A program made the position numbers and the translations under genes. The notes beneath the pieces were generated by a model. The model saw nothing but the letters and a program-made list of their open reading frames with translations, did not search any database and was not told the DNA's origin. From Candidatus Micrarchaeota archaeon (lineage in GTDB: Archaea; Micrarchaeota; Micrarchaeia; Norongarragalinales; Norongarragalinaceae), in assembly GCA_016207165.1 (NCBI GenBank), contig JACQQD010000011.1, forward strand, positions 6,515 to 70,514: DNA of 64,000 nt. Reading direction: 5' to 3'. Positions 381-47,326 of this stretch are shown piece by piece (within the stretch, counting starts at the first letter, position 1; each line of letters starts with the position of its first letter).

Positions 381-384
381 AACC

Positions 385-858: not shown

Positions 859-868
859 ACCCAAAGGC

Positions 869-2065: not shown

Positions 2066-2071
2066 CCAAAA

Positions 2072-2524: not shown

Positions 2525-2535
2525 GCCGGGCCGAA

Positions 2536-3075: not shown

Positions 3076-3086
3076 ACAAAACCGCC

Positions 3087-3956
3087 TTAATACGACGCTT
3101 CAATGAAGGCGCCGACAACCAGAAGCAACACGGAAATGCCCAAAAGCACGAAGGAGACCTTGAACACGTGGCGGAACAAAACGGGCTTGGACAACCCGTT
3201 CTTCATGAGTTCCATGGAAAACAATCCGCCGGCGATGCTCGCCAAAAAGTACGCGCCCAACTCGAAGATGCCGTGAGGCAACAACACCAAAAAACCCTGC
3301 ACCACACCCAAAGGCCCAATGACCTGCATTTTCTTGCCGACCACGACCCCAATGATGGACGCGTTCCAAAGCAGCAAGTAAATCGAGCCGATGCCGTACA
3401 CCAAACTGAACACCAACATCAACCCCAAAACCTGGAGGTTGTGCGTGAACAAAAACAAGAACAAGTCGCCGGACACGTCGCCCATGGGCGTGGTGACGCG
3501 GCCCTGGAGTACGGAGGACTGAATCAGATCGACTTCCCGCAATTGGTCGGCGAACAATTCCGACGAGCCCGGCACCGATTGGCCGAACAACTGGAAGGGT
3601 TCCGGGGGAAGCACGGCAAACCAGAACGTGTACGCCAACGCGGCCCCCAAAAAGAAGAAGCCGAAGACTTCCAGCATGTCGGCGTGATGCGTCCGAAGGT
3701 GCCCCAACACCGACGTCAGAGGAACGTGGTGGTTCTTGAACTCCTCCACTTCCTTTTCCTCGTCTTCCTCTTCTTCCAACAGCAGCCGCCAAACCACGGG
3801 AATCAACGGCACCATGGTAAAGACGATGATGGACCCCCGAATCGGTAAAAACAATTCCACCAAAACGCCAAACGAGACGAAAACGAAGGTGGCCAGAACC
3901 ATGGCCCACGGGTCCCTGCGCACCTGGCTGGGCGAAACCAGAAAATCCAAGACCAT
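3087..3956 (-). CDS. DUF95/SpoIIM-like polytopic membrane protein
   Basis: Multiple TM helices, acidic loop and 'AYFLASIAGG' segment typical of the SpoIIM/DUF95 family. Confidence 0.4.
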   Translation of the reverse strand: MVLDFLVSPSQVRRDPWAMVLATFVFVSFGVLVELFLPIRGSIIVFTMVPLIPVVWRLLLEEEEDEEKEVEEFKNHHVPLTSVLGHLRTHHADMLEVFGFFFLGAALAYTFWFAVLPPEPFQLFGQSVPGSSELFADQLREVDLIQSSVLQGRVTTPMGDVSGDLFLFLFTHNLQVLGLMLVFSLVYGIGSIYLLLWNASIIGVVVGKKMQVIGPLGVVQGFLVLLPHGIFELGAYFLASIAGGLFSMELMKNGLSKPVLFRHVFKVSFVLLGISVLLLVVGAFIEASY

Positions 3957-4007
3957 GAAAAAGCATAGTGCGCCGAGCGCTTTAAACCCGGCGGGTGCGC
4001 ATGCCGC

Positions 4008-5036
4008 CTAAGCCCGCGAAAACCCGGCCAGCGTCTTCTGTTTCTCGCCCAACGATTCCAGAGGCTGGGCATCAAAGCCTCGTTTCCGAAGCTCAGACGC
4101 GAACTTGGCCGACGGGCCGTGCGTGCAAAACACTTTTTTGGGGTTGCACGCGGACACGAACTCAACCAGTCCCGGAAAATCGTTGTGGTCGCTCAAGCAA
4201 AACGCTTGGTCCACGCCAAAACCGTTCGTCAGCGACCAGCCGGTGGCCACGGAAAGAGACACCTTCCTTCCATACGCCCGGTATAGCCCCTCCGCCAAAA
4301 ACGGCTTGACGTTGTGCATCGGCAGAACCGCGGCAAAACCGCCTTTGAGCGCCGACGGGTCGTTGCACGTATAATCCAACGCCACGCCGTGCCGCTGGTA
4401 GACTTCGTTGACGGCGGCAATGGATTGATCCACCACAGGACAAATCCCCGCCTCGTTGAGCGCGGAAACGACTTCTTGCGCTTTACCCAACGCGTAAGCG
4501 CCAAACACCGCAATTCTTCCCATTGCGAGCTTTTCGTTCGCCCACCGCCCCATGTCGGCGTACACCTCGCTTCGATCCGGAAAAACGTACTCGGGGGAAC
4601 CGTACGTACACTCCAAAAGCAACGTGTCGCACTCTACGGGCTTGGCGGCTTTTTGCGTCAACGAGTCCTCCGACAAAAAGTCGCCCGTGTACAAGAACGA
4701 CTCGCTTCCCTGAACGAAAAGCATGCGCGAACCCAGCACGTGGCCGGCATTCAAAAGCGTGAACCGCGCGGAGACGCCTTGGTGGAAAGACTGCGTTTTT
4801 TCGGGCACCGCTTTGCCGCGCGCCAAGAGCAAGTCCATGGTTTCCCTGCTTGAAAGCACCAATTCGGCGTTCCGAAGGGAACGGTAATGGTCAAAGTGGG
4901 CGTGGGAAACGAACGCCTTGGAGCCTTTGGAATCCAGCGCGAAGCGGTCGCTGCCGCTTTGCACAAAGGCGTTGGGTGGGTCAAACGCCAACATCCCACC
5001 CACTACACCCCCAATTGATTTAAACTCTTGGTTCAA
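4008..5036 (-). CDS. beta-CASP family metallo-beta-lactamase nuclease (~340 aa)
   Basis: MBL motif 'HAHFDH'. beta-CASP motifs 'DTLLLECTYG', 'LSDHND', 'CTHG'. 4-bp ATGA overlap with the upstream gene indicates co-transcription with the transfer-like operon. Confidence 0.7.
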   Translation of the reverse strand: MNQEFKSIGGVVGGMLAFDPPNAFVQSGSDRFALDSKGSKAFVSHAHFDHYRSLRNAELVLSSRETMDLLLARGKAVPEKTQSFHQGVSARFTLLNAGHVLGSRMLFVQGSESFLYTGDFLSEDSLTQKAAKPVECDTLLLECTYGSPEYVFPDRSEVYADMGRWANEKLAMGRIAVFGAYALGKAQEVVSALNEAGICPVVDQSIAAVNEVYQRHGVALDYTCNDPSALKGGFAAVLPMHNVKPFLAEGLYRAYGRKVSLSVATGWSLTNGFGVDQAFCLSDHNDFPGLVEFVSACNPKKVFCTHGPSAKFASELRKRGFDAQPLESLGEKQKTLAGFSRA

Positions 5037-6517
5037 ACCGGCCGCACCATGGCCAAACCCAGCACGAACACCAACGCCAAAAGCAGGCCGTCGTACCCAC
5101 GGATGACGTCAAAAGAAAAACCGGGCGCTGATTCGACGTACACGGCGGCGGCACTGGATACGGGTGCAAAACCTTCCGAACCCAGAAACGAGACCGTCAC
5201 CCGGTGAATGCCTGGTTCCGAAAAGGAAATTCGCTCCACTACCCAGCCCTCGTCATTGGTCACTGAATCCCACGCGGATTCGGGCGTCTGGATGCGCACC
5301 ATGGCACCGGAAAGCGGACCTCCGGTCACGCGTTCAAGTCGGGCCAACACGTCCACCGATTCCCCGGGCCGGATGGCGTCGTGGGAAACGTTGACAGCCA
5401 ACCGAGCCGCGTCAAAGGTTTCCATTCTGACGGCTTTGGAAGCCACGTGGCCGAATACGTCGCGGGCCTCAAAAACCACGTCGTGCGCGCCCAAAATCCG
5501 GGAAGAAAACACGTTTTGCTCCAGGGCGTACCCCCGTACATAGGATTCCGGCGAAAACACATGCGCCTTCAACGTCACGTCGGAATCCGCGTCCAGCCGG
5601 TCATCCGCACGGGTTTCAACGTATTGGACACCCCGCGCATTTTCTTTGACGTCGAAAGCCAAGCGGTTCCACTCCGACACCCGCTTTCCGTCCAGCCTCG
5701 TCTCCACGTAGTAAACCGAGGCGTTGGACAACCAGTAAAAACGCATCCATGGAAGCAGAATGCTTCGCTTGAGGGTCCACGGAGCCAACAAAACGCCTTC
5801 GAAAACCGGGTTGACCACCGGCGAGGATACGACGTTGGATTTCCCGGAATACGGGTAGGAATCCACGCGATGCGAGTACTCCATGTAGGGAACCGTCCAG
5901 CAATACCAGGGCCCGCATTCCTCGCGGCATTTTTGCTCCTGAGTGCTCGTGGTGTAGTACAGCTTCAATTCCCCCTCCAGCCATGCCTGAAGAGGACTTT
6001 GGGCCGCGGCCAGTTCCTCGGCGTTAAACGGAGTGCGCAACGGGTTGGAAGGGTTTTGGATGGTTTTACGCACGCCGTCCAAATCAAAGTGGGCGGTAAA
6101 CGTCGGAACCGCGCTGGAAAACACGGTCTGCGACTGGCTCGTCCCACAGCCATCAACTCGCCCCACCGGGGGAAAACGGGGGTACGCGTCGTACGACCAA
6201 CCCCACACCCACGCCGGCACATCCACCGCGGACACGTTGCCGTCCACCGACGGAAACGGGGGATGCAGTTGAATGGAAAACAAAAGCAGGGGATTGGACG
6301 GCGCGGCATAGCCCCCCGTATCGACGCGGACACCTTGGAGAGATGAAGCCATGGCCAAGTTGTGCTGCGCCACGGCGTCATGAGGCGGCTGAACGACGGC
6401 CGAACACGCGCCCAACAACAAGGCCAAAAGCAAAACGCTACGCACGAAGCAACCGCTCCAAATCCAAGAGAGAAAGCCAGTTGCCGCAACCCGCTTTGAC
6501 GCGTTCGCGGGCGGCAT
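5033..6517 (-). CDS. secreted lipoprotein-like protein with C-terminal TM anchor
   Basis: N-terminal hydrophobic signal with a lipobox-like 'LLGAC'. C-terminal 'PGF..' followed by a TM segment. Overlaps both neighbours. Confidence 0.45.
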   Translation of the reverse strand: MPPANASKRVAATGFLSWIWSGCFVRSVLLLALLLGACSAVVQPPHDAVAQHNLAMASSLQGVRVDTGGYAAPSNPLLLFSIQLHPPFPSVDGNVSAVDVPAWVWGWSYDAYPRFPPVGRVDGCGTSQSQTVFSSAVPTFTAHFDLDGVRKTIQNPSNPLRTPFNAEELAAAQSPLQAWLEGELKLYYTTSTQEQKCREECGPWYCWTVPYMEYSHRVDSYPYSGKSNVVSSPVVNPVFEGVLLAPWTLKRSILLPWMRFYWLSNASVYYVETRLDGKRVSEWNRLAFDVKENARGVQYVETRADDRLDADSDVTLKAHVFSPESYVRGYALEQNVFSSRILGAHDVVFEARDVFGHVASKAVRMETFDAARLAVNVSHDAIRPGESVDVLARLERVTGGPLSGAMVRIQTPESAWDSVTNDEGWVVERISFSEPGIHRVTVSFLGSEGFAPVSSAAAVYVESAPGFSFDVIRGYDGLLLALVFVLGLAMVRPV

Positions 6518-8486
6518 CCAACCGGAAGACCAAAACCTTTTTACCTTTCCTCGCCCGGATGCCCTCGTTGACCCAAGAAATCAGCCAACCCGAGGTGACG
6601 AAAACGTCCAACAACCGCCTCCTGAAAAACGCCGCACGCAACCCCGACTCATCCGGATACCATGAACGACACGCTACCAGGCCTCCTCCATCCATGGCCA
6701 GTTGAGCGGATGCGCCAGCCACAGCCCTTGAAAGGCTCTCCGGAAGAACCACGGCGTGGGGGTCCCCCAAACCGCGCTCCAAATGCGTTTTCAGTTCAGC
6801 CAACCGCACCGGCATGCGCGTCCAACCAAAAACGCGGTTAACGTGCAGGACGGCATCCACCAAAAATCCGGCGTCCACCGTTTGCCGCAACGCGTGAAGC
6901 TTTTCCGGAGGATCCACGCGTACGAATTGACCCATCCGGCTTGAAAGCCCAAAGGCCACAGCAAAAAACGCCAAGGCCCCGACGCCCATCAAGCGATCCG
7001 GCCAAGAGGACAAAAAACCCGCCGTGGACTGGACGCGCGCATTCACGGCCACAGGCCCCACTTCAACGACATACGTCTTGCCGTCCCCATGAAAAGAAAG
7101 GTCCTCAAAACGGATTGCGCCGCCAGCATCCGTGTAAAACACCGAACCGTTCCAGTACACGGGCTGGCGGGCGTACGCCACGCCGTCCACCAAAACCATG
7201 GCCGAAATGCGCTTGGTGCCAGGGTCGGCTTTGGCGATGCGGACCTCCGGCGCTTGCACGTGGACCGCGGAATAGGAAGACGCCCCGCCGTCCGAAAACG
7301 AAATCAAAAAATCGCCGGACTTGTTGAACCCAATGCTCTTGGACAAAAGAAAAAGGCCGGACGAAACCTGGCCGAACTCCCGGGATTCAAGCACGCGCCC
7401 GTCTTGAACCAGAGAATACGTGAACCGGGAGCCACGGGAACGGTTGGAGAAAAGCGATACGGAAAGCGATTCGTTGATCCACGCCACAGCCGGATTCAGC
7501 ACACGCAGATCCGAACGGTTCAAGGAAAAGTGCAGACGACGGGAAGCGTTTCCGCCATCCAGCCACACCAACGCGTGCGTGGCTGAAGTGGAAAACGGTT
7601 GCGAGAAAATCGTTTGCGGCAAAAAAAAGTTCCCCTCGAATTCCGTCAACGGGTCCTGCCACGACGCATTCAAAACAAAGTCCGCCACGGCATCCCCCGC
7701 CGAAAAGCCTGAAGAAAAACCCCGGTCCAAAGGTCTGGGGTACGCCGCCAAGTAGCCCCCGTTTTTGAAGACCTGCCAAGAACCCCTGCGGTACGCCGAA
7801 CCGTTTTTGGCCTCCAACCGGTACCCCGACAACGCGTCATCCGAAACAAAGTCCACGCCCAAGCCCTCTTTTTGGATCTCCCAATCCGGGTTGGCCGCCA
7901 AGCCTTTGGAGTCCCAAACATACGAAAAAGGAAGGCCCACGTGCACCACCACGCCCCCGCCTCGAATCCACTGAACCAAACCACCTGAAGAAATAAACTC
8001 GCGAGGAAACGCGGACGAAGCCACCACCAAAATCCCAGGCGTTAAGAGCGTAAGCCCGCGAAGCGGCACGCGCGACACGGAAACATCCCACGAATCAAGG
8101 CGTTTTTCCAAGCGCTCCAAAAATTCGGGGAAAAACTGCTGGTCGGATTCCGACAATACGTACACTCGGCTTGGAACGGCATCCCGAAACAACGCCACCC
8201 GCACGCGGGCCCGGCCGCTTCCATCCACGAAGAAAAACGCCTTGGACGCGTTGCCCTCAAACCACGCCAGGCCAGCGTCTTGCACGGAAGCCGGAATACC
8301 CTCCGTGGATTCAACGACGTCCCCGTACAGAAAGTACACCGAAAACGATGCAACCGCCAAGGCGACCAACACGAAAAACCGCTTCACGGCCGCACATCCA
8401 CCTCCACCAACCGCGCTGATTTCGGCAGAAAAGACGCAAAAGAAGCGGCAAACGAGTCGGACACCTGTTCGTCGGAGAAACCGCAT
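6438..8486 (-). CDS. large membrane protein with N-glycosylation-sequon-rich extracellular domain
   Basis: 682-aa ORF. N-terminal TM, then ~450 aa with many N-x-S/T sequons, a second TM ('GVGALAFFAVAFGL') and a C-terminal cytoplasmic domain. True start uncertain. Confidence 0.45.
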   Translation of the reverse strand: MRFLRRTGVRLVCRFFCVFSAEISAVGGGGCAAVKRFFVLVALAVASFSVYFLYGDVVESTEGIPASVQDAGLAWFEGNASKAFFFVDGSGRARVRVALFRDAVPSRVYVLSESDQQFFPEFLERLEKRLDSWDVSVSRVPLRGLTLLTPGILVVASSAFPREFISSGGLVQWIRGGGVVVHVGLPFSYVWDSKGLAANPDWEIQKEGLGVDFVSDDALSGYRLEAKNGSAYRRGSWQVFKNGGYLAAYPRPLDRGFSSGFSAGDAVADFVLNASWQDPLTEFEGNFFLPQTIFSQPFSTSATHALVWLDGGNASRRLHFSLNRSDLRVLNPAVAWINESLSVSLFSNRSRGSRFTYSLVQDGRVLESREFGQVSSGLFLLSKSIGFNKSGDFLISFSDGGASSYSAVHVQAPEVRIAKADPGTKRISAMVLVDGVAYARQPVYWNGSVFYTDAGGAIRFEDLSFHGDGKTYVVEVGPVAVNARVQSTAGFLSSWPDRLMGVGALAFFAVAFGLSSRMGQFVRVDPPEKLHALRQTVDAGFLVDAVLHVNRVFGWTRMPVRLAELKTHLERGLGDPHAVVLPESLSRAVAGASAQLAMDGGGLVACRSWYPDESGLRAAFFRRRLLDVFVTSGWLISWVNEGIRARKGKKVLVFRLDAARERVKAGCGNWLSLLDLERLLRA

Positions 8487-9886
8487 TGCTTGAGGTGCCG
8501 GCGAACGGCGTCATCCGCCAAGCCCACATCGGAAAGCTTGGCCACCCACGACCCGGCATCCACCGCATTTGATTTTCCCGAAAGCCAGGCCTCCAACTCC
8601 AAAGCCTTGGAAGCGGAGACCCCCAATTTTTGCAGTTCCGAAAGAAACTTTTTCTTTTCAAACGAAAACGCCACGCTTTTCACCTCCAACGACACCCATT
8701 CCAACAACGCCTCGCCGTCCACCCGCTCCAAGAAAAACGCGTCACCCTGCGAAAAACCGGCCCACTGCAAGTTCACCGCGCAACAACCCACCGGCAACAA
8801 GCCTATGCGCCGCCGAACCGCATCGGAAAACCCGAGGGTCTTCTGCAAATAGTCCAAGCTGTCCGAAAACGCGGTGCGAAACATGAACAGCGACCCCACA
8901 TTGGAAAAAATGGCGGAATGCACGTCCATGGGATTCTGGGAAGCGATGACCAAACCGAAGGCGTACTTCCGCCCCTCCCGAACGATGGCCACCGGGTCGC
9001 CGTCTTCTCGGCAGATCTTCCAAGCCTCATCCAACACCACCCACCACTTCAAGCGCCGCCCCTCACCCGGCCCGCACGCCCGCATCTTCTCCGCAACGAA
9101 CTGAAGCAACGACAGCCCCGCCAAGCTTCGAAAGGACTCCGACGGCAAGGCCGTCAAGTCCACGCACACCAAACCCGCTTCCAAGAGCTTTTCCAACGCA
9201 AACGAACTGGGCTTGGCGAAAAAATCGGATCCCCCTATGACCAGGGGGCGAAGCAGAAGCACCGCGTTTTCCATCTCGCGCTTGTCCCACGCCGACGCCC
9301 TCCTGGACTTCGCCTTCAGCCACGCCGACACGTCTTTGAGCGTCGGCGGCCTCTTGGAAAACTTCCGCATCGCATAACACTGTTCAATGGCAAAACGCAC
9401 CCACTGGCGTTCCCGAGCAAACTGGCCCAAGTCCGTCAACAACGCCAACGCCTCCACCACCTGACGCGTGCGCTGAGAAGGCGTCATGCCTCCCAAATCC
9501 AGCAAGTTCAATGACGCCTCCCCCAACCGGATGACGTGACCCCCGGACTGCTTAACCCAAGAAGCGTACTCGCCGGACCAATCCAAAATCAAGGCATGAG
9601 TACCCCACACCAAATTCGAGCGCGTCAAAAACGACTTGACGAAAAAACTCTTGCCCGAACCCGTCATGCCCACCACCGCCACGTGCGGATTGGCCAAGTG
9701 AGCAAACGACCAGCAAAACGGCACGCCGAACGCCTTGGCTTTCGACACCCAGATGCCGTCCGTCGGATCCGAAAACAAGAGCCTTGACGGCGGCTGGGAC
9801 GGCCGGACAAACAAGGGCCTGGACCGAAGCGCTCCGGACAAAACGGGCCTGGACTCTGGAAACCCCAACCACGGCCACGCGTTCAT
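8384..9886 (-). CDS. VirB4/TraC/HerA-superfamily (DUF87-like) secretion ATPase
   Basis: Walker A 'GMTGSGKS', Walker B 'VVLDEAWK' and arginine finger 'REGRKYAFGLVIASQNP', characteristic of FtsK-HerA/VirB4 ATPases. Start overlaps the upstream stop (ATGA). Confidence 0.7.
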   Translation of the reverse strand: MNAWPWLGFPESRPVLSGALRSRPLFVRPSQPPSRLLFSDPTDGIWVSKAKAFGVPFCWSFAHLANPHVAVVGMTGSGKSFFVKSFLTRSNLVWGTHALILDWSGEYASWVKQSGGHVIRLGEASLNLLDLGGMTPSQRTRQVVEALALLTDLGQFARERQWVRFAIEQCYAMRKFSKRPPTLKDVSAWLKAKSRRASAWDKREMENAVLLLRPLVIGGSDFFAKPSSFALEKLLEAGLVCVDLTALPSESFRSLAGLSLLQFVAEKMRACGPGEGRRLKWWVVLDEAWKICREDGDPVAIVREGRKYAFGLVIASQNPMDVHSAIFSNVGSLFMFRTAFSDSLDYLQKTLGFSDAVRRRIGLLPVGCCAVNLQWAGFSQGDAFFLERVDGEALLEWVSLEVKSVAFSFEKKKFLSELQKLGVSASKALELEAWLSGKSNAVDAGSWVAKLSDVGLADDAVRRHLKQCGFSDEQVSDSFAASFASFLPKSARLVEVDVRP

Positions 9887-10671
9887 GAAACCCGCCCCAG
9901 AAACGATTCATGCGACACGGGTATAGCGGCTTTCCAGTCCAAGCACCGCTTGACTTCGTCCCCGCGAAGCAACCGCACCGGCGCGTTGAGCGCATTGGCC
10001 ACCACGGCCTTCAATTCCCTTGCCTGCAAACGCACCCGCTCCGCGGCCTGGGCCTCCGAAAAACCCGAAGCCGTAGTCGAGACAAAGTACACCACGTCCA
10101 ACGGCTTCTGCCCCTGCGCCAACTTGTCCAACAACCCCGAAAACATGGAGAGTTTCCGCTCCTCACGCGCCACCGCCGACACGTCGGGTTTCGGCGACTT
10201 CTTTAACCGGCTCAACAAAAGCTCCGACTCCAAGCGCTTGGTCAAAACCGATTCCCGGTACTTTTCCACGTCCAAGCCGAACACCAATACGCTAAACTGC
10301 GCCGGAAACGTCAACGCCGACAGCGCCTGCTCAAACGACGCGGCATACGACGCCGTCTTCTCGGGCGAAGCAGACGACGGGCAATGCGACACGTCCACCT
10401 CCAAGAACGCGGACGACAAGAAACGGTCGCCATCCGGCAAAACGGCGACTTCGTCCAGCAACCGCCACGAACCCCGCGTCTCCACCACATGCGCTTTCTT
10501 CAGAAACGCCGGAAGCAGCACATCGCCAAACCGCTGCACCGCCACCGCGAAGAAAAACAAGAGTGATGAAAAAACCAAGGCGACAAGGCTACCGGCGACC
10601 AGGGCCAACACCACGCACAGCCCTCCCCCTCCAAGGCACGCCAACAGCGCGTCCTTGGGCTTCAACTCCAT
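9883..10671 (-). CDS. membrane-anchored protein of transfer-like operon
   Basis: N-terminal TM helix, then ~200 aa soluble domain. In-operon overlap with both neighbours. Confidence 0.4.
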   Translation of the reverse strand: MELKPKDALLACLGGGGLCVVLALVAGSLVALVFSSLLFFFAVAVQRFGDVLLPAFLKKAHVVETRGSWRLLDEVAVLPDGDRFLSSAFLEVDVSHCPSSASPEKTASYAASFEQALSALTFPAQFSVLVFGLDVEKYRESVLTKRLESELLLSRLKKSPKPDVSAVAREERKLSMFSGLLDKLAQGQKPLDVVYFVSTTASGFSEAQAAERVRLQARELKAVVANALNAPVRLLRGDEVKRCLDWKAAIPVSHESFLGRVS

Positions 10672-18347: not shown

Positions 18348-18563
18348 ATGGCAACCTACATCAACCTGCCGGTAACGCCGGACGTCAAGCAGATCATCGA
18401 CGAATACCGACGCGAGCACGGCCTGAAAAGCTACAGTGAAACCCTTCGGAAAATCTTCAAGAAAACACGAAAAGGAAACATCTTTCTGATGGACGACATG
18501 CGAGGCATACTCAAAGGCACACCCGATTTTGTGAGGGACAAGCGTGACCGTCATTTTGATTGA
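18348..18563 (+). CDS. putative antitoxin (VapB-like)
   Basis: 71 aa. Overlaps the downstream PIN gene. Preceded by an ATTGCAAT-AATTA-ATTGCAAT operator-like repeat. Confidence 0.45.
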   Translation: MATYINLPVTPDVKQIIDEYRREHGLKSYSETLRKIFKKTRKGNIFLMDDMRGILKGTPDFVRDKRDRHFD

Positions 18564-18948
18564 CACCAGTACCCTCATTCGCTTCTACAAAAACGAACTG
18601 GACGAAAAAACCGAAGGAGCGCTCAGGAAAGGCATTTCCGGCATCAGCATCATGACCTACTTCGAAATCATTCGTTGGCTGCTGAAAGTCCACCGCGCCA
18701 ACGAAAGACCGTACTTCATCCAACGAATGCAAGAAACATTCGACATCATTCCGCTGAGCCTGGCCATCTGCGAACACGCCGCCCAAATCGCGCACTCCGA
18801 TTCATTTTCCACCGCCGACGCCCTCATCTACGCCACCGCCCTTGAAAACGGCATAAAACTGATGACTTCCGATACCGACTTGAAAGGCAAACCCGGCGTC
18901 ATCTTTGCCCCCCGCAGGAACCGAACTCCAGTATCGGACGCCCAATAA
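18544..18948 (+). CDS. PIN-domain toxin (VapC-like)
   Basis: 'ILIDTSTLI' N-terminal PIN motif. 134 aa. Confidence 0.6.
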   Translation: MTVILIDTSTLIRFYKNELDEKTEGALRKGISGISIMTYFEIIRWLLKVHRANERPYFIQRMQETFDIIPLSLAICEHAAQIAHSDSFSTADALIYATALENGIKLMTSDTDLKGKPGVIFAPRRNRTPVSDAQ

Positions 18949-21316: not shown

Positions 21317-22701
21317 AAAAAATGAAAAACTGGATTACAGTGATTGGATTTTTGGCCTTGCTCTCCGTAAGCCTCTCCGCCAACGTGCGCCCCATCTTCC
21401 TGAACCAAGACCCCGACCCAGCTGCCCCGGGACACTACGTGGAACTCCGCTTCAAAGTCGAGAAAACTACGACCGCCGAAATCCGGGACATGCAATTCCG
21501 ATTGGACGTGGTTTACCCCTTCTCCTTTGACGGCTCCGACACGCCCACCCGATCTTTCGGAAGCTTCACCGGCGCCACCATCGGCTCCGACAACCAATTC
21601 ATCTTGAAGTACAAAGTCTTCGTGGCTCCCGGCGCGCAAACCGACAAAGCCGAAGTCAAGCTCTACTACCGCGACAGCGCGCAGGACTGGACGGAATTCA
21701 AGTTCAACATCGCGGTGGACGACAGCCAACCCAACCTGGTGTTAGGATCCGTGAAAACAACGCCTGACGCACTCTTTGGCGACTTTGACGGCGCCAAAGT
21801 CAGCATCGCCTTAACCAACATCGGCGACAAAGACGCCCAAAACGTGCAAGCCACACTGAGACTGCCTGAAGGCTTTGAGCCGTCTTTTGGCTATTCCGAC
21901 CAAAGCGTGTACGGCACCATCACCCAAGGATCCAGCCAATCCGCCGACTTTTACGTGGACTTGAATGAATCCGTGGCCAAAGGATCCTACCCTGCACAAC
22001 TATTCATCCAATTCAAGCACGTCAACGACCCGCAAACCGACTACCGAAACGCCTCCATTCCCGTCAACCTGCAAGTCAAAGGCCGGCCGCAATTCAAAGT
22101 CGTCTCCGTCAAAACCACTCCCGACGCGTTGCACCCCGGCACGAAAGCCACCGTCAACGTCGTGATAGAAAACGTTGGAAGCGACGAAGGAAAATCCACT
22201 TCGCTTAAAGCCTTCAAGGAATCCACGCAACCCTTTGAATTCGACGACAAATCCGACTTCATCGGCAATTTGAAACCCGGAGAAAAAGGCGAAGCCGTTC
22301 TTTCCGTCAACGTGGCCCAAAACGCGGACCCAAAAATCTACCGACTCAACGTGGAAGCCCGATCCATCTACAACGACCAAGTCGTTTTGAGCACCGACAC
22401 CATCCAATTGGACGTGCAACCCGGCGGAGCAACCGGATTTGAGGGCAAAGACATTCTTCTGGTCCTGCTCTTGGCGGCCACCGCCTTTCTTGCCTACCGC
22501 CAATTCGGGCCCAAAACCAAGGGCGGACAAATCGAAAGCAAAGATGAAAAGACTGGAAAAGACGGAGGAGACCACTCCGGGCACGGCGGACATAGGACCA
22601 GCGGCCATGAAGAAAGCACTTCAACGGGTTCCAAAACCGAGGCCGAAGAAACCACCGAACCCAAACGCAAGGTCCACGTCGTGTTGGGGAAGAAAAAATA
22701 G
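21307..22701 (+). CDS. COG1361-like cell-surface (S-layer domain) protein with C-terminal TM
   Basis: Signal peptide, repeated beta-rich CARDB-like domains and a C-terminal TM with a basic tail. The archaeal COG1361/RND exporter gene pairing is known. Confidence 0.45.
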   Translation: MEVKKMKNWITVIGFLALLSVSLSANVRPIFLNQDPDPAAPGHYVELRFKVEKTTTAEIRDMQFRLDVVYPFSFDGSDTPTRSFGSFTGATIGSDNQFILKYKVFVAPGAQTDKAEVKLYYRDSAQDWTEFKFNIAVDDSQPNLVLGSVKTTPDALFGDFDGAKVSIALTNIGDKDAQNVQATLRLPEGFEPSFGYSDQSVYGTITQGSSQSADFYVDLNESVAKGSYPAQLFIQFKHVNDPQTDYRNASIPVNLQVKGRPQFKVVSVKTTPDALHPGTKATVNVVIENVGSDEGKSTSLKAFKESTQPFEFDDKSDFIGNLKPGEKGEAVLSVNVAQNADPKIYRLNVEARSIYNDQVVLSTDTIQLDVQPGGATGFEGKDILLVLLLAATAFLAYRQFGPKTKGGQIESKDEKTGKDGGDHSGHGGHRTSGHEESTSTGSKTEAEETTEPKRKVHVVLGKKK

Positions 22702-22806
22702 CTCGAAACCTTCGTTTTTTAGGGGCCGGTTGGGCTCCTTCGTCTTCTTTTTACCCGCTGGAAACGACCAGTCCGACCTCAAGCCAAAGCACCAACCAAT
22801 TACTTT

Positions 22807-23304
22807 TCAAATTACTTTTACTTCATTTCCTTTAGGTTTACGATTGATTAACTCTAGATGAATTGCGGTAACACCTTGAATTGCTTGAAGACGATGGGCA
22901 TCCACGTTCTTGACAAGTTCGTCAGTGACTTCCAATCGCTCGTCGTGATAAACAATACGTTTTTTCGGTCGTAAAATAATCTGCCCTATCCGGGGGTCTT
23001 CAATTGCTGCTTCTTCGTGGGCAACGCGATTTCCAATGTTCTTTACGTAGTCAATCGCCGTCAAAGTTCGCTTGCGGAGTTCTTCGTCGATTTTTTCCTT
23101 TTTACAAATTTTACAAAAAACCTGTTTTTTTGCCTCAAACGTTAAACGTTCGGATAACACGAAATCTCTTAAGGTAAAGGTCTTTTCATCTTGAGGCCAT
23201 ACAAAGTAGTTTGCCAAAAAAAACTCCAAGCCTTGTTCCAAACCAGCCCTCATCCGCAGTATTTCACCGCACCTGCGATGAAAAAGAGTAACGTTTTCTG
23301 ACAT
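22807..23304 (-). CDS. hypothetical protein (cassette A of TA/defence island)
   Basis: Start trimmed to a Met that sits ~25 bp downstream of a TATAAATT box. Lower GC than the flanks. No confident domain; 'NIGNRVAHEE' is only weakly HEPN-like. Confidence 0.35.
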   Translation of the reverse strand: MSENVTLFHRRCGEILRMRAGLEQGLEFFLANYFVWPQDEKTFTLRDFVLSERLTFEAKKQVFCKICKKEKIDEELRKRTLTAIDYVKNIGNRVAHEEAAIEDPRIGQIILRPKKRIVYHDERLEVTDELVKNVDAHRLQAIQGVTAIHLELINRKPKGNEVKVI

Positions 23305-23327
23305 GGACAAAAAAATAGGGAGGGTGT

Positions 23328-23335
23328 AATTTATA
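23328..23335 (-). promoter_or_regulatory. TATA-box-like element upstream of cassette A start
   Basis: Minus-strand 'GCTATAAATTAC' ~25 bp upstream of the ATG at 23304. Confidence 0.35.
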
Positions 23336-23447
23336 GCTAAACTGGGTGACCGTGAGAAAGGTAATTTGGGAACACGCTCACGCGTACTATCTCCGGGTGC
23401 GTTCCAATCCAGTGCCACGAGTCAAGCGTTTAAAAACGTGGGGAGGG

Positions 23448-23463
23448 GTCGTGGCCGGTGAAC
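23448..23463. repeat. conserved island motif copy 1 (GTCGTGGCCGGTGAAC)
   Basis: One of four near-identical 16-mers in the intergenic gaps of the cassette island. Confidence 0.7.
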
Positions 23464-23488
23464 CGTTGGGGGCGTTTTGTTGAAGGCA

Positions 23489-23845
23489 TTATTTTTTCTT
23501 GTAGCCGAAGCGTTTGTCGTAGGCGGGGTGCGGTTCGATGTTCAAGACGAACGAAATGATTTCGATTTCCGAGTCGCCGGCTTTCAGCGTGTAAAGCATT
23601 CGCCAAAATTGGGGCAATTCCACGCGGAACAAGTTCTTTACGTCATAGCGTTGGACGTATTCCTTCGGGATTTTCTCCTTGGAAATCGGGTCGCCGTAAT
23701 GGATGTTGGCCTTGATCAATTCGACTTTCTTGTTTACGGCGTTCAGGATGCTGCGCTCGAGTTTCGACGAGGGCGCGCGCTCGTTGAGGTACCGGTAGAC
23801 GTCCTCGGCTTCCGGCGAAAGGATGACGCGGACGGCCTTGTTCAA
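23489..23845 (-). CDS. RelE/ParE-family toxin
   Basis: 'NLFRVELPQFWRMLYTLKAGDSEIEIISFVLNIEPHPAYDKRFGY' fits the RelE/ParE C-terminal consensus. 118 aa. Confidence 0.55.
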   Translation of the reverse strand: MNKAVRVILSPEAEDVYRYLNERAPSSKLERSILNAVNKKVELIKANIHYGDPISKEKIPKEYVQRYDVKNLFRVELPQFWRMLYTLKAGDSEIEIISFVLNIEPHPAYDKRFGYKKK

Positions 23846-24114
23846 AGTTCAAGACCCCGGGCAATCGCCTTTTTCAATTCCGGGTCGTCGTTTGCAATCC
23901 AGGAAATGCCTTTCAAGGAAACGGCGATCTTGTTGCTGGCCTCCAAGTACTCCAAAATCGCCTTCAGCGTGTAATGGTTGACTTGACGCGGCAACAACCG
24001 CTTCAACTCCGCCACGGTGACCACGCTTTCTTTCATGTCCGCCAACACGTTCTCGACCATGATGACGGTCTTGAGGTTCGGGGCACGCCCCACGTTTTTG
24101 TACATAAAAATCAC
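23842..24114 (-). CDS. antitoxin of RelE/ParE pair
   Basis: 90 aa. 4-bp overlap with the toxin. Preceded by a TAGTTAC/GTAACTA inverted-repeat operator. Confidence 0.45.
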   Translation of the reverse strand: MIFMYKNVGRAPNLKTVIMVENVLADMKESVVTVAELKRLLPRQVNHYTLKAILEYLEASNKIAVSLKGISWIANDDPELKKAIARGLEL

Positions 24115-24115
24115 C

Positions 24116-24145
24116 TTTAGTTACTAAGTCGTAACTATTAGTTAC
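24116..24145. promoter_or_regulatory. inverted-repeat operator-like element (TAGTTAC..GTAACTA..TAGTTAC)
   Basis: Seen directly at the 5' end of the antitoxin gene. Confidence 0.35.
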
Positions 24146-24244
24146 AAAATAGTACTTAAAGGCGTGGTTTCCAGAAAAACCAGAGCGATTCAAGCCGTGC
24201 ATGCCGATCTCGAGGAAAAACGAGGTTCTTAAGGGCGAGGAAGG

Positions 24245-24260
24245 GTGCTGGCCGGTGAGC
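24245..24260. repeat. conserved island motif copy 2 (GTGCTGGCCGGTGAGC)
   Basis: Shares the core TGGCCGGTGA with the other copies. Confidence 0.7.
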
Positions 24261-24280
24261 AAATGGGATCGCGAATGGAT

Positions 24281-24748
24281 TTAGGAAAACTTGTTTTTCA
24301 GGAAGCCGATGGCTGCGCGGACTTGGTCTTCGGTGAACTTGGGTTTCTTGAGTTTGAGTATGGACACCAGTTTCTTTGGGTCGAATTGGCAGGAAAACTC
24401 GTCGTTGACGTAAAGCAGGCTAGCGTAAAGCTCCAAGGCGTCGGGGTCTTCTAGACTGTTGCCGAAAAAGGATTTGAAGGCGTTAAGTTTGTCGGCGTCC
24501 ATGGGTTGGGACATTGTTTCGTGTTGGTAATGCGTGTAATAGTCAAAGTGCAAGTCGTAGGAGAAGGGGCCCGCGTAATGCCATACGAAAGAATAACCGG
24601 TGTCAACGCCCCATTTTTCAAGCAAGTAGGCGATTTTCTGTAAGTGCTTGCGGCTGACGTAGTCCAAAAAGGAAAGACGGCGGCCCAACAAGGATTGGAC
24701 GTCGGCGTGCAGCCGGTCCAACCGCTCTGGCACGTTCACGAAAGCCAT
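24281..24748 (-). CDS. Panacea-domain (DUF4065/SocA-like) protein, putative antitoxin
   Basis: 'KHLQKIAYLLEKWGVDTGYSFVWHYAGPFSYDL' matches the Panacea consensus (KLqKLlY...W.yGP). Confidence 0.45.
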   Translation of the reverse strand: MAFVNVPERLDRLHADVQSLLGRRLSFLDYVSRKHLQKIAYLLEKWGVDTGYSFVWHYAGPFSYDLHFDYYTHYQHETMSQPMDADKLNAFKSFFGNSLEDPDALELYASLLYVNDEFSCQFDPKKLVSILKLKKPKFTEDQVRAAIGFLKNKFS

Positions 24749-25524
24749 TACGAATCCCTCTTTTTTAACCCGTTTGGCGGGCTTAATTCGTCCAGCAACG
24801 CCTTGATTTTCCCGGGAAGTTCGAAAATGATTTCGGTTTCAACGTCCGCGTAGTTGGGTGTCGAGGAAGTCAGTATCAAGGCGTCGACGCACGAGTTGTA
24901 GACGGTGACCAAGTGCGCCATTTCGGAAATGGCTTGCACCAGCGGCATGTCTTTTTCCTCGAAGGCTTCCAGATTGTTCAACAGCGCGTGGCAAGCCACA
25001 CCCGTTAACCGAATGCGTCCAACGAGTTTCTTGTTCTTGGGGTCGTGCTGGAGGATTTGGAGGTTGTTTGAGAGTTCCGTCTGGAAAGCACGGATGAGGG
25101 CGCGTTTTTTTCGTTGGTCTCTTTCGGCAAATTTCTTGAGGTTCTTTCCAATGCGTGCAAACTGTCTTCCGGCGCCTTTCAGCGCCCAAACCGTTTCCGT
25201 GGCGTCATCTTCCCGAACGACTTCGATGCGACGCTGGGAATTAAAGGACAACTCCCGATCTTCTAGGACCGGTTGCTTGACAACCACCGACTTCAAATCG
25301 ACAAGCTCTGGCAAAAGTTCTCGGATGGCATCCAGAAACGCTTGATTGCGGTCCAAGTCGCCTTCCAAAAGAAGTTCCACGTGGCCGTCGTGCTTGAGGT
25401 TGCGGACCTGGCCCTTGACGGAAAAATCGCCGTTCTCGGCCAGCTCCTGAATAGATTCACGCAAGTTCACGCCCTGGACGTGTTCGGGCGTGTGCCCTTG
25501 GAAAACGATTTTGAGTATCTTCAT
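24748..25524 (-). CDS. acylphosphatase-like domain fused to an unknown C-terminal domain (putative toxin/effector)
   Basis: N-terminus 'LKIVFQGHTPEHVQGVNLRESIQELAENGDFSVKGQVRNLKHDGHVELLLEGD' aligns with the acylphosphatase VQGV...GxVRNxxDGSVE...EGD fold. Start set to 'MKILKIV', which sits ~29 bp downstream of a TTTTATA box. 1-bp overlap with the Panacea gene. Confidence 0.5.
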   Translation of the reverse strand: MKILKIVFQGHTPEHVQGVNLRESIQELAENGDFSVKGQVRNLKHDGHVELLLEGDLDRNQAFLDAIRELLPELVDLKSVVVKQPVLEDRELSFNSQRRIEVVREDDATETVWALKGAGRQFARIGKNLKKFAERDQRKKRALIRAFQTELSNNLQILQHDPKNKKLVGRIRLTGVACHALLNNLEAFEEKDMPLVQAISEMAHLVTVYNSCVDALILTSSTPNYADVETEIIFELPGKIKALLDELSPPNGLKKRDS

Positions 25525-25549
25525 ATCCAAGAACCCGTCCGTTGATGAG

Positions 25550-25557
25550 TATAAAAG
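25550..25557 (-). promoter_or_regulatory. TATA box (minus-strand CTTTTATAC) for the cassette C operon
   Basis: ~29 bp upstream of the ATG at 25524 and ~11 nt downstream of motif copy 3 in the gene orientation. Confidence 0.4.
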
Positions 25558-25568
25558 CATTCAGACAC

Positions 25569-25584
25569 GTCCTGGCCGGTGAAA
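25569..25584. repeat. conserved island motif copy 3 (GTCCTGGCCGGTGAAA)
   Basis: Identical 16-mer to copy 4. Confidence 0.75.
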
Positions 25585-25613
25585 ACAAAAAGAAAAGCGC
25601 CGGGGGGAGAATG

Positions 25614-25877
25614 CTAAAAGTAACTCGAATACCATTTTTCGTATTGTTTGTGGTCGCCGACGAAGTAAAAGCGGACTTGATTTGATTCGTCAAAGACGCG
25701 GTACGTGATGCGGTGTTGGCCGGCTTCGTCCACGAAAAACCGAGTGTTCTTTCCCATGTGGCGCTTCTTGGGATACTCCAAGATTTTCCGGATTTTTTTG
25801 ACGACGCGTTCCTTGGTGACGGAATCCAAGGCCTCAAAGTATTTCGGCCAATCCTCGTCGAAGCTTTCGACAAACAT
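25614..25877 (-). CDS. RelE/ParE-family toxin
   Basis: 88 aa from an internal Met. 'HRITYRVFDESNQVRFYFVGDHKQY' is the RelE/ParE C-terminal signature. Confidence 0.55.
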   Translation of the reverse strand: MFVESFDEDWPKYFEALDSVTKERVVKKIRKILEYPKKRHMGKNTRFFVDEAGQHRITYRVFDESNQVRFYFVGDHKQYEKWYSSYF

Positions 25878-25893
25878 GGTTTTGGACAGGTGA

Positions 25894-26166
25894 TTACTTG
25901 AGGTGCGTGGCGTAAGAGCCCAGGGCTTGGTCCGCTGCCAAGAGTTTCCGCTTGCCGGAGGCAATATCACGGTCGATGCGGTCCAGTTTCGCGTTGACCA
26001 ACGCCGTTTCGTCCAAAAAGCGCTTTTCGCCAAACGAGATGATGGCAAGTCGAATGGCTTCGGACTGCGAATTGGCAAAGCCTTTGGCCACCATGTCTTT
26101 CACGATGTCCTTGGTTTTGCCACGCAGAATCACGTTCATGTCGCTCAATACAATTACCTCCACCAT
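25894..26166 (-). CDS. ribbon-helix-helix-like antitoxin
   Basis: 90 aa. 'SEAIRLAI' RHH-like helix. 17 bp upstream of the toxin. Confidence 0.5.
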   Translation of the reverse strand: MVEVIVLSDMNVILRGKTKDIVKDMVAKGFANSQSEAIRLAIISFGEKRFLDETALVNAKLDRIDRDIASGKRKLLAADQALGSYATHLK

Positions 26167-26187
26167 GCATTAAATATGCTTCGTTAA

Positions 26188-26204
26188 TGATCCAATTTGG
26201 ATCA
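26188..26204. promoter_or_regulatory. perfect 17-bp palindrome TGATCCAATTTGGATCA (putative antitoxin operator)
   Basis: Lies ~25 bp upstream of the antitoxin start. Confidence 0.45.
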
Positions 26205-26281
26205 TTTACATGTAGGATCTCGGACTTTTGCATTTCAGCTTCATGATAGACACGATTGGTTGTTCTTTAATGTGGAGAGGC

Positions 26282-26297
26282 GTCCTGGCCGGTGAAA
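26282..26297. repeat. conserved island motif copy 4 (GTCCTGGCCGGTGAAA)
   Basis: Identical to copy 3. Confidence 0.75.
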
Positions 26298-26358
26298 GGG
26301 GGACGCGTTGGGTCTTACCCGTCAATTGCGGCAAAAAAGGATACAAAAAGAGGGGGGG

Positions 26359-27669
26359 TTAGAAGCGGTTTCTGGGCTTGAATCGAGAGGTTCCGGATGG
26401 GCGACGGCTGAAGTGTTGACGTGGACCGTGCCCGCCAAACCCTCCGCGGTGGCCGCCCCGTCCACCAAAGCCTCCCCGTCCACGGCCCCGTCCTCTTGGA
26501 GGCGGTCTTGCCGCGGCTCCGGTCGCGTTTTTCGCGGTTTCAGAATGCAAGGCGTGGTCCATGACTTGGATTTGTTCGCCGATGAGGCGTTGGATGTCGT
26601 TGAGGTAAGAGCGCTCGTCAGCCGCGCAGAAGGAATAAGCGGTGCCGTCGGCTCCGGCTCGTGCCGTTCTTCCGATCCGGTGGACATAAATCTCGGGTTC
26701 GTTGGGCAAGTCGTAGTTGATGACGTGGGAAATGTCGTCGATGTCGATGCCTCTTGCCGCAATGTCGGTGGCGACGAGGACTTGGACGCGGTTTTTCTTG
26801 AAGTTGTCCAGCGCCTTGATGCGTTGGTTCTGGCTTTTGTTGCCGTGGATGGCATCCGCCCGAATCCCGTGGTGGGTGAGCATGTAGGCCACCTTGTTGG
26901 CCTTGTGCTTCATCAGCGTGAAGACCAAGACGCGCGTCAAGTGGCTTTGCTTGAGTAGGGAGACCAATAACTCGTCTTTTTTGTCGGAGTCGACGAAGAA
27001 GAGGCGTTGCTCGATTTTTTCCACGGTTTTGCATTCCGGCGTGACTTCCACGCGCACCGGATCCTTCAACAAAGAGTTGGCCAGTTCCCCGATTTGGGGG
27101 GACATGGTGGCGGAAAAGAAAAGCGAATGGCGTTTGGGGGGAAGCAAAGCGATGATTTTTCGGACGTCGCGGTAAAAACCCATGTCCAGCATCCGGTCGG
27201 CCTCATCCAAGACGAAGTATTGCACGCCGTCCAATCGGATGTGGCGTTGTTGGATCAAGTCCAACAACCGGCCCGGAGTCGCGGTGAGGAAATCGACGCC
27301 GTGGTACAAGGCGCGCACTTGCGGGCCTTGGCCCACGCCGCCAAACACGACGGCGCGCCGCACGCGAAGGAATTGGGCGTAGGCGGCAATGCTTTCGTCG
27401 ATTTGGAGAGCCAACTCGCGGGTGGGCGTCAAAATCAGGACTTTCGGGGTTTTTGAAACCAGGGACGTGGGGCGATTAGTCAAGTGCTGGAGGATGGGCA
27501 ACGTAAAGGCGGCGGTCTTGCCGGTGCCGGTTTGAGCGATGCCCAACAAATCGCGGCCGTCAAGTAAAGGCGGAATGGCTTTGGCTTGGATGGGAGTGGG
27601 TGTGACGTAGCCTTGGTGCTTTAAGGCGCGAAGGATGGGTTCGATGAGGTGGAGTTGGGCAAACGGCAT
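26359..27669 (-). CDS. DEAD-box ATP-dependent RNA helicase with C-terminal RGG/Gly-Arg-rich tail
   Basis: Q-motif, 'AQTGTGKT', 'DEAD', 'SAT', 'HRIGRTARAG'. Start trimmed to 'MPFAQL'. Confidence 0.85.
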   Translation of the reverse strand: MPFAQLHLIEPILRALKHQGYVTPTPIQAKAIPPLLDGRDLLGIAQTGTGKTAAFTLPILQHLTNRPTSLVSKTPKVLILTPTRELALQIDESIAAYAQFLRVRRAVVFGGVGQGPQVRALYHGVDFLTATPGRLLDLIQQRHIRLDGVQYFVLDEADRMLDMGFYRDVRKIIALLPPKRHSLFFSATMSPQIGELANSLLKDPVRVEVTPECKTVEKIEQRLFFVDSDKKDELLVSLLKQSHLTRVLVFTLMKHKANKVAYMLTHHGIRADAIHGNKSQNQRIKALDNFKKNRVQVLVATDIAARGIDIDDISHVINYDLPNEPEIYVHRIGRTARAGADGTAYSFCAADERSYLNDIQRLIGEQIQVMDHALHSETAKNATGAAARPPPRGRGRGRGGFGGRGGHRGGFGGHGPRQHFSRRPSGTSRFKPRNRF

Positions 27670-27778
27670 GGTTTGGTTCCTGGTAAAGATTAAAGGTAGT
27701 TGCAATAAAAGTGGACGGCAGGGTTTATTTAGGTCCCAGGTTGGGCAGGCACCCGTTAACGGGTCCTCTCAATAAGAA

Positions 27779-27980
27779 CGCCGGGGCCGAGATTTGAACT
27801 CGGAAGGACCGAAGTCCACTAGATGGCTCGGACTAGAACCCTTTTCTCCCTCAAAAATGCGCAAGCATTTTTGGGGCCCCGCAAACCCTAAAGGTTTGCG
27901 CTGGTTTCATGGAAGTTTTCTTTTCGGGAAAAGAAAAGTTCCCTCGAGTCTAGCGCGTTACCGGATTCCGCCACCCCGGC
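27779..27980 (-). tRNA. tRNA-Ser(CGA) with ~117-nt intron between positions 37 and 38
   Basis: Hand-folded. 7-bp acceptor GCCGGGG/CCCCGGC with discriminator G. 3-bp D-stem with an 11-nt loop. Anticodon stem CTAGA/TCTAG with loop CTCGA(G|intron)A. Long variable arm GGAC-TTCG-GTCC. T-arm CCGAG-TTCAAAT-CTCGG. No encoded CCA. Intron boundaries are approximate. Confidence 0.5.
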
Positions 27981-28153
27981 AGGATGGAGTAATTGGTTGG
28001 TTGAAAAGACCTAAAAAGGCTTTCAGAATAGAAATGGACTACGAACTTGAACGCATATTGTCTGAATTTATCGAAAAGCACGAGAAGGCTTTGAAAGTCT
28101 TGGCCAAATACTAGTTTTGACTCGGTTCGGAAATCTATTTCTTTGCATTTGTT

Positions 28154-46058: not shown

Positions 46059-46083
46059 ACAACGCCTCCAACGTAACGAATCC

Positions 46084-47278: not shown

Positions 47279-47326
47279 GCCGAGCAAATCCTGGAACAAC
47301 CCATCACGTTCAAGAAGAAAAAATAG
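47279..47326. repeat. direct repeat copy 2 (duplicate of trpS 3' end)
   Basis: Would encode '...ILEQPITFKKKK*', a copy of the trpS C-terminus. Confidence 0.7.

Follow-up and report, generated by a model that had tools for sequence, protein, structure and literature searches.

The DNA analysed here is a 64-kb window of a Candidatus Micrarchaeota genome (positions 6,515 to 70,514 of contig JACQQD010000011.1, assembly GCA_016207165.1). At 22.7–26.4 kb it carries seven small minus-strand genes that make up four adjacent cassettes, A to D, of the toxin-antitoxin type, and a homologous 35-nucleotide (nt) unit stands ahead of each cassette. The unit is, on balance, an archaeal promoter module that is read on the minus strand, in the direction of the cassettes, and that has an upstream 10-mer which is probably protein-binding. 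Comparison across genomes suggests that a shared cis-regulatory promoter module, traceable to the promoter of a conserved small RNA, is essentially the right description of the unit.

The exact 10-mer core TGGCCGGTGA occurs on the plus strand of the window at 23452, 24249, 25573 and 26286 only. These four occurrences, all within 2.9 kb, compare with 0.18 expected, and four or more were found in none of 100 shuffles. In a scan of the 64 kb with a position weight matrix (PWM) of a 16-nt element that includes the core, the four copies scored 24–27 bits and the next-best site 13 bits, a gap of ~11 bits. A repeat search placed the copies in register as a 35-nt family starting at 23428, 24225, 25549 and 26262, with an A/T-rich box at a fixed distance. 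The four units are as follows.

26262–26296, minus strand: unit U4, with the motif TCACCGGCCA at 26295–26286, the pyrimidine-rich spacer GGACGCCTCTCCAC and the TATA-like box ATTAAAGAAC at 26271–26262; 63 nt past the stop of the helicase gene and 95 nt ahead of the ATG of the ribbon-helix-helix (RHH) gene of cassette A.
25549–25583, minus strand: unit U3, with the motif at 25582–25573 and the TATA box CTTTTATAC at 25557–25549, 24 nt ahead of the ATG (25524) of the 258-amino-acid (aa) acylphosphatase-fusion gene of cassette B.
24225–24259, minus strand: unit U2, with the motif at 24258–24249 and the TATA-like box CTTAAGAAC at 24233–24225; 119 nt before the ATG at 24105 (cassette C).
23428–23462, minus strand: unit U1, with the motif at 23461–23452 (TCACCGGCCAC) and the TATA box GTTTTTAAAC at 23437–23428; 123 nt before the ATG at 23304 (cassette D).

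The first-pass annotation of this DNA had described a 16-nt element at four places, each with a TATA-like box, 20–60 bp past a stop codon and 10–16 nt before the box. The enrichment, the matrix scores and the common register bear this out, and the measured distances from the 10-mer are 63, 31, 22 or 27 nt to the stop of the preceding gene and 14–15 nt to the TATA-like box. The 10-mer is exact in all four copies, whereas an exact 16-mer GTCCTGGCCGGTGAAA stands at 25569 and 26282 alone; the remaining two copies read GTCGTGGCCGGTGAAC and GTGCTGGCCGGTGAGC. The units look like mosaics, in that the motif-proximal half of U4 resembles U3 and its spacer resembles U1, while U2 resembles the units of other genomes, its flank TTTGC/TCACCGGCCAGCACCC being near-identical to them. 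A degenerate fifth copy, thought to close the island at ~22725, was rejected; its score is below the PWM threshold, it stands at the wrong distance from any A/T box, and it forms the stem of a hairpin:

22721–22739, plus strand: terminator-like hairpin after the convergent CARDB gene.

The strict pattern of TATA box, spacing and motif was then run on 185,579 reference genomes, on metagenome contigs and on viral contigs. The reference genomes yielded four single, chance-like bacterial matches only, and scans of the viral contigs with the motif pattern gave nothing relevant. The metagenome contigs gave 10 matches, of which two, at the loci L008 and L013, are real relatives (GTTTATAAAG..GGGAGAGGTGCTGGCCGGTGAC) with identical spacing. 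A small zinc-ribbon gene adjoins the unit in both, and its use as a handle recovered the locus in L022–L025, L026 and L031. The lineages so recovered are genuine relatives, since two of them share assemblies with orthologues of the helicase of the window (78–80% identity). Each of the five related Micrarchaeota lineages (L008, L013, L022–L025, L026 and L031) has exactly one unit in 7–20 kb, with the same spacing. The 258-aa protein has a single homologue among 5.8 billion clusters (46% identity), encoded in another assembly at locus L028, and that gene is preceded by CCCACCGGCCAG, 13 nt, the TATA box TTTTTAAC, 22 nt and the ATG; here the unit lies immediately past a tRNA-Thr gene. Because this distant homologue carries the unit upstream, the motif-TATA geometry has stayed with the acylphosphatase cassette across deep divergence.

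Every CACCGGCCAG in ~190 kb of Micrarchaeota DNA lies between genes and has a TATA box after it. A search tolerating one mismatch gives 9 matches versus 1.2 expected, and 8 of the 9 are these units. The distance from motif to TATA box is 13–15 nt in all 10 units (14–15 in the window copies and the five units of the related lineages, 13 in L028). The only other assembly of the strain (L001, 99.97% identical) has the same array, and at L029, which extends past the right edge of the window, synteny breaks and there is no unit.

Alignment of the related lineages reveals what the unit precedes there. The fully conserved TTTGCTNAANG-TCACCGGCCAGCAC is followed by a pyrimidine-rich stretch, CTTTATAAA, ~24 nt without conservation and then a conserved block of ~115 nt, in the order AAGCCGCNATAACGGCTTT ... 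GAAGGARGNAGCACCCGGAAATTCTGTA ... GGTGGGG ... GAATACGGAACCGCCGGGGGCTCTTTTCCCTTCTCCCC. The block folds into a 5' hairpin and a long helix with interruptions; the pairing includes G-U pairs and a single compensatory change, and in five of five lineages the strand of the block folds better than the complement by 4–11 kcal/mol. An extra hairpin is inserted at the tip of the helix in L022 and L031, bringing the RNA to ~170 nt instead of ~115 nt. The locus always lies between the zinc-ribbon gene and a Fumble/PanK-like gene:

L008, ~7363–7470, minus strand: RNA gene.
L013, ~6440–6560, minus strand: RNA gene.
L022, ~10270–10445, minus strand: RNA gene.
L026, ~2390–2510, plus strand: RNA gene.
L031, ~1790–1945, minus strand: RNA gene.

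A TATA box, then ~24 nt free of constraint and then a conserved structured RNA make up the arrangement typical of archaeal RNA genes and their promoters; the block therefore appears to be a structured, unannotated RNA gene with an archaeal promoter of its own. Given that promoter, the motif would lie upstream of it, at about -45 to -57. Rfam has no family for the units, the window leaders or the RNA of the relatives. The leaders of the window (95–123 nt) have no homology to this RNA beyond the unit, and the RNA core is absent from the window.

The surroundings of the RNA gene vary among the lineages. Compared with L008, L013 and L026, the promoter and RNA module of L022 and L031 is turned round between its flanking genes. 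Directly downstream of the RNA, L008 and L026 carry an AbrB-PIN cassette whose operator (ACCAGTAGTACAAAAGTATTACTGG) is the same in both; the cassette is missing from L013, L022 and L031, and in L026 genes for TrmB and a haem-oxygenase-like protein are also inserted nearby. The module inversion and the variable neighbouring insertions indicate that the RNA locus is prone to rearrangement.

Within the window, the spacing of the units can be compared with that of ordinary promoters. Housekeeping genes typically have TTAAAAGC- or TTTATAGG-like boxes 22–29 nt before a leaderless ATG, often with C/T-rich DNA upstream. The distances from the unit TATA box to the start are of the same kind: 24 nt at U3, 22 nt at L028 and ~24 nt at the RNA of the relatives. 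The box CTTTTATAC of U3 is the sole TATA box within the 89-nt intergenic region before the 258-aa gene, and because it stands 24 nt from the ATG, U3 is read as the promoter of a leaderless cassette B operon. U1, U2 and U4 lie 95–123 nt from the start codon, and each gene there has a proximal TATA box of its own, two of them with palindromic operators. The alternative that the first-pass annotation had placed beside a recombination site, a shared cis-regulatory element, gains support from the units of the same spacing before the RNA of the relatives and before the L028 cassette.

The unit is restricted in its distribution. It precedes no other gene of the window, not even those of a PIN toxin-antitoxin pair at a distance of 4 kb; this second pair, a 71-aa gene and a PIN gene at 18348–18948 on the plus strand, has an ordinary promoter. 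The motif is likewise absent from the HicAB, MazE/PIN and AbrB/PIN pairs of the relatives. As other window genes and other toxin-antitoxin operons lack it, the unit is neither a generic promoter nor a generic toxin-antitoxin feature, and the prevalence upstream of housekeeping genes that would have marked it as a generic promoter element is not seen in the window.

These observations can be combined into a model. The unit would consist of the invariant upstream element (T)CACCGGCCA(G), a pyrimidine-rich, CCTCYCC-like stretch at the place of the TFB recognition element (BRE) and the TATA box. Transcription would start ~23–25 nt past the unit TATA box, and this predicted start places the 10-mer at about -45 to -57. 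The relatives would use the module once per locus for the ~115-nt RNA, while here it would have been copied ahead of the four adjacent cassettes. For the acylphosphatase/DarG-like pair the unit would be the only promoter. For cassettes A, C and D it would be a distal second promoter, firing toward the cassette from U4, U2 and U1, upstream of the TATA box of the cassette itself and, in two cases, also of a palindromic operator. The invariant 10-mer would most likely be bound by a conserved DNA-binding protein of the host, either a specific regulator or a contact of the basal factors. If so, the RNA and the cassettes may be under one transcriptional input.

The genes placed under the units in this model, and the sites close to them, are the following.

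25894–26166, minus strand: cassette A, gene 1, a 90-aa RHH/ParD-like antitoxin candidate (TIGR02606, E 0.02, a weak match).
26168–26178 and 26187–26205: proximal promoter of cassette A, with the TATA box CATATTTAATG and the palindromic operator ATGATCCAAATTGGATCAT, respectively.
25614–25877, minus strand: cassette A, gene 2, an 87-aa RelE/ParE-like toxin candidate.
24748–25524, minus strand: cassette B, gene 1, 258 aa, acylphosphatase-like in its N-terminal domain and helical in its C-terminal part.
24281–24748, minus strand: cassette B, gene 2, 155 aa, with a DarG C-terminal-like fold; the start codon overlaps the stop codon of gene 1 (ATGA).
23842–24105, minus strand: cassette C, gene 1, an 87-aa small winged-helix-like protein.
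24152–24162, 24131–24145 and 24110–24118: proximal promoter of cassette C, with the TATA box, the palindrome GTAACTAATAGTTAC and a Shine-Dalgarno-like site, respectively.
23489–23845, minus strand: cassette C, gene 2, a 118-aa protein with no family match.
22807–23304, minus strand: cassette D, a 165-aa protein in the lowest-GC stretch, with a weak DUF4145 match and otherwise no family.
23326–23337: TATA box GCTATAAATTAC of cassette D itself, 23 nt ahead of the ATG.

The perfect palindromes at 26187–26205 and 24131–24145, beside the proximal TATA boxes of cassettes A and C, are likely antitoxin operators. The case for toxin-antitoxin identity, judged from sequence matches, is uneven among the cassette proteins. 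In cassette A, which had been labelled a RelE/ParE and RHH pair, the 87-aa protein matches PF05016 with an E value of 2.8e-4 (21.8 bits, cut-off 23) and a RelE-like PHROG with 1.2e-4. The toxin is thus borderline RelE/ParE-like, while its RHH partner matches only weakly. The label of a second RelE/ParE protein, given to the 118-aa protein of cassette C, finds no counterpart in Pfam, NCBIfam, PADLOC, PHROGs or PDB sequences. In cassette B, the first-pass annotation had proposed a Panacea protein fused to an acylphosphatase; the acylphosphatase domain proved to lie in the separate, upstream 258-aa gene, and no relevant Pfam model, including DUF4065 (Panacea), matches the 155-aa protein or 61 of its homologues, together the 62 members that were sampled. 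The 155-aa protein does match the DarG model of PADLOC (E 6e-6). A structure search with its AlphaFold model, computed from an alignment (pLDDT 95), brought up a single clear neighbour: the DarG of the DarTG complex from M. tuberculosis (PDB accession number 7yk3; Foldseek probability 1.0, TM 0.55). The family comprises at least 339 clusters at 50% identity and keeps the motif QK..YLL...G..GY.F.WY..GPYS..L. The PADLOC match and the DarG-like predicted fold suggest that the 155-aa protein is antitoxin-like, with the 258-aa acylphosphatase-fusion protein as its putative toxin partner. The island had also been described as a stretch of lower GC; this is borne out in part only, with GC at 0.40–0.42 over the 165-aa gene of cassette D, the rest being at 0.48–0.53 and the window as a whole at 0.557.

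Several points weigh against the promoter module. Its start sites and direction are deduced from sequence, and the copies U1, U2 and U4 could be redundant or inactive, given the well-placed TATA boxes that these genes have of their own. Two of the units, U2 (CTTAAGAAC) and U4 (ATTAAAGAAC), have weak TATA boxes. The 10-mer lacks dyad symmetry, which is unusual for a dimeric regulator, and no candidate binding protein was identified. The related DNA scanned for the motif amounts to ~190 kb only. Finally, four copies with 35 nt of homology need a copying mechanism, and regulation alone leaves their spread unexplained; duplication or recombination at the unit must have happened at some point.

A promoter could also be read from the same DNA on the plus strand. 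Transcription would then start at the G of GGT/GA, with the motif at -14 to +3, and would produce RNAs antisense to the 3' end of the right-hand gene (helicase, RelE-like, 155-aa and 118-aa, respectively). The plus-strand boxes do look canonical (TATAAAAGC and TTTAAAAAC here, TTTATAAAG in the relatives) and stand 23 nt from GGT/GA, as in housekeeping promoters. In the relatives, ~13 nt past the motif (GACNTTNAGCAAA) are conserved, and a covarying hairpin at this place is common to L008 and L013. However, past those 13 nt neither the five lineages nor the four window copies show any plus-strand conservation, and in L028 the plus-strand transcript would directly enter the tRNA-Thr gene in antisense. 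The cassette strand, in contrast, offers a leaderless ATG at U3 and L028 and an RNA 5' end in the relatives, each at the right distance. We therefore regard plus-strand transcription from the unit as unlikely.

The other alternative raised by the first-pass annotation was an attC-like site in an integron-like cassette array, a reasonable idea since archaeal integrons with canonical attC sites are known (PMC9668308). In its modified form the unit would be a non-attC recombination junction, served by a recombinase encoded elsewhere, with the crossover in or beside CACCGGCCAG, so that each insertion leaves a copy and an array builds up. Such a junction would account for four unrelated cassettes that all start with a homologous unit, for the mosaic look of the units and for the lack of the island at the helicase loci of the relatives, and it would be in keeping with the inversion of the RNA module in L022 and L031 and with an AbrB-PIN cassette that comes and goes beside it. 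However, the hallmarks of integrons are missing from the unit. Single-stranded DNA (ssDNA) folds of the four intergenic regions gave z values of -0.35 to +0.78 versus shuffles on both strands, no fold being better than shuffled DNA, and the repeat search found no inverted repeat at the units. There is no GTTRRRY / RYYYAAC core either: on the plus strand the units start with GTTTAAA, GTTCTTA, GTATAAA and GTTCTTT, three of them lack a purine at position 4, and the other side has no inverse core. The unit is TATA-linked and 5' of cassettes of which three in four have their own promoter, whereas attC sites are 3' of promoterless cassettes. These features are at odds with an attC-like array. In the relatives the unit stands alone as the promoter of an RNA gene, without an array of cassettes; where AbrB-PIN has been inserted, in L008 and L026, the insertion misses the motif and lies ~150 nt away, on the far side of the RNA gene; and in L001 the array is unchanged. 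The earlier statement that the window holds no integrase agrees with tblastn searches of the window using a Micrarchaeota tyrosine integrase and an rve transposase, which found no homologue, and the genes flanking the island are housekeeping genes (the trp operon, FBPase and a DsbA-like gene). A recombination junction at the unit is, in our estimate, quite improbable. A little less probable still is a combination of the two functions, in which the CACCGGCCAG-TATA unit would be both promoter and crossover site of a hairpin-less archaeal cassette-capture system with its recombinase elsewhere. Each cassette would then arrive with, or regenerate, a copy of the promoter, and the single RNA-gene copy of the relatives would be the ancestral 'empty' site.

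Very little can be said for reading the unit as a terminator, insulator or roadblock at which transcription of the preceding gene would stop, the A/T box being incidental or part of an oligo-T terminator: each copy does lie 22–63 nt past a stop codon, and C-runs and T-runs occur ahead of U4 and U3, but the T-runs sit before the motif and outside the conserved unit, the DNA upstream of the unit in the relatives is variable, non-coding and without a gene end, and the A/T box is fixed relative to the motif and stands at promoter distance from conserved downstream starts. Origin recognition boxes were rejected by eye, the copies being co-directional, 0.7–1.3 kb apart between genes and far from orc/cdc6.

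The island is adjoined on its upstream side by two genes:

26359–27669, minus strand: DEAD-box helicase, the context gene upstream of the island.
27778–27981, minus strand: tRNA-Ser(CGA), with a 118-nt intron at position 39/40, found with the intron option of ARAGORN.

The intron-containing tRNA-Ser of the first-pass annotation is thus real, although it was missed by ARAGORN with default settings and by Rfam, whether the gathering threshold or E <= 1 was applied. Its suggested role as an integration target receives no support, as the helicase genes of the relatives are not beside a tRNA-Ser gene and the unit matches no part of this tRNA. A tRNA-derived att site was rejected as well, the motif lying outside both the tRNA-Ser gene and the tRNA-Thr gene of L028, where no tRNA end is duplicated. 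The helicase orthologues of related Micrarchaeota (loci L016–L021), at 78–80% identity, have neither unit nor island beside them, and synteny is not conserved; these loci are for that reason uninformative on gain or loss of cassettes at the motif. Directly upstream of the helicase orthologue at one of them, L019 (GCA_016188965.1), positions 354–9548 hold a tyrosine integrase gene and ~9 kb of genes that match no family, probably an integrated element.

Three repeats were noted in the window. A perfect 14-nt inverted repeat (ACCAACCAATTACT) at 22791–22804 and 27988–28001 brackets the island, the helicase and the tRNA-Ser gene, its arms lying 3 nt past the stop of the last cassette and 7 nt before the 5' end of the tRNA gene. 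As an island boundary it was rejected, the window having 7 such pairs versus 3.2 in shuffles, and the repeat is probably due to chance. A 26-nt stretch from the 5' end of tRNA-Glu recurs as a direct copy 200 nt ahead of the gene (59331–59356 and 59531–59556); the copy may be a remnant of integration or duplication. Direct repeats of 21 and 16 nt, 124 nt apart, occur at 47161–47198 and 47285–47322, in the 3' end of the gene at 45961–47208 and the spacer after it.

Cassette B can be compared with the DarG C-terminal, toxin-binding domain and with the Panacea/DUF4065 antitoxins (PMC8832971). The predicted fold of its 155-aa protein resembles the DarG C-terminal domain, and the two genes form an operon with overlapping stop and start codons. 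However, the 155-aa protein has no macrodomain and no DarT partner, its partner being an acylphosphatase-like fusion protein. Cassettes A and C, for their part, resemble type II toxin-antitoxin operons in having a proximal TATA box with a palindrome, but the unit is an extra element further upstream and is common to unrelated cassettes, so that it is not an antitoxin-specific operator.

An attC site is an imperfect inverted repeat (R''-L''...L'-R', about 57–141 nt) with GTTRRRY / RYYYAAC cores that folds as an ssDNA hairpin. It stands at the 3' side of integron cassettes, which are mostly promoterless and are expressed from a common Pc promoter. Archaea possess both integrons with canonical attC sites and integrase-less arrays (CALINs) (PMC9668308). 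The island resembles such arrays in that an element lies at every boundary of co-directional small accessory or toxin-antitoxin cassettes and, as in CALINs, no integrase is adjacent. It differs in that the conserved part is only 35 nt long, without imperfect palindrome, hairpin or R'/R'' cores, and in that the unit bears a TATA box, stands 5' of cassettes with promoters of their own and is used singly by the relatives. A tempting false positive for 'archaeal integron-like arrays' is thereby removed.

To our knowledge, almost nothing is known of transcription control in DPANN archaea, which are not culturable alone, and the literature searched contained no paper linking Micrarchaeota, toxin-antitoxin systems and promoters. 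The unit defines a cis element, with an invariant 10-mer at a fixed distance from the TATA box, in several Micrarchaeota lineages, and it joins a structured RNA to accessory toxin-antitoxin cassettes. If one factor does bind it, the RNA and the cassettes would make up one of the first regulons defined in DPANN archaea, and new cassettes would have been wired into host control via a copied host promoter. An archaeal promoter with an upstream factor-binding element is of a known kind; it is new for this lineage, in which none has been described. The Ptr2 upstream activating sequence (UAS) is one example. Activator sites upstream of BRE/TATA are established in two further cases: GvpE has a UAS at the gvp promoters of haloarchaea (PMC2241852), and EarA has sites at the fla promoter of Methanococcus (PMC5512572). 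Like the GvpE and EarA sites, the 10-mer is short and conserved, is common to several transcription units and is set at a constant distance just ahead of BRE/TATA, not within the core promoter. Unlike them, it is unrelated in sequence and without dyad or direct-repeat symmetry, and its putative targets are a small structured RNA and accessory toxin-antitoxin cassettes, with four copies in 3 kb.

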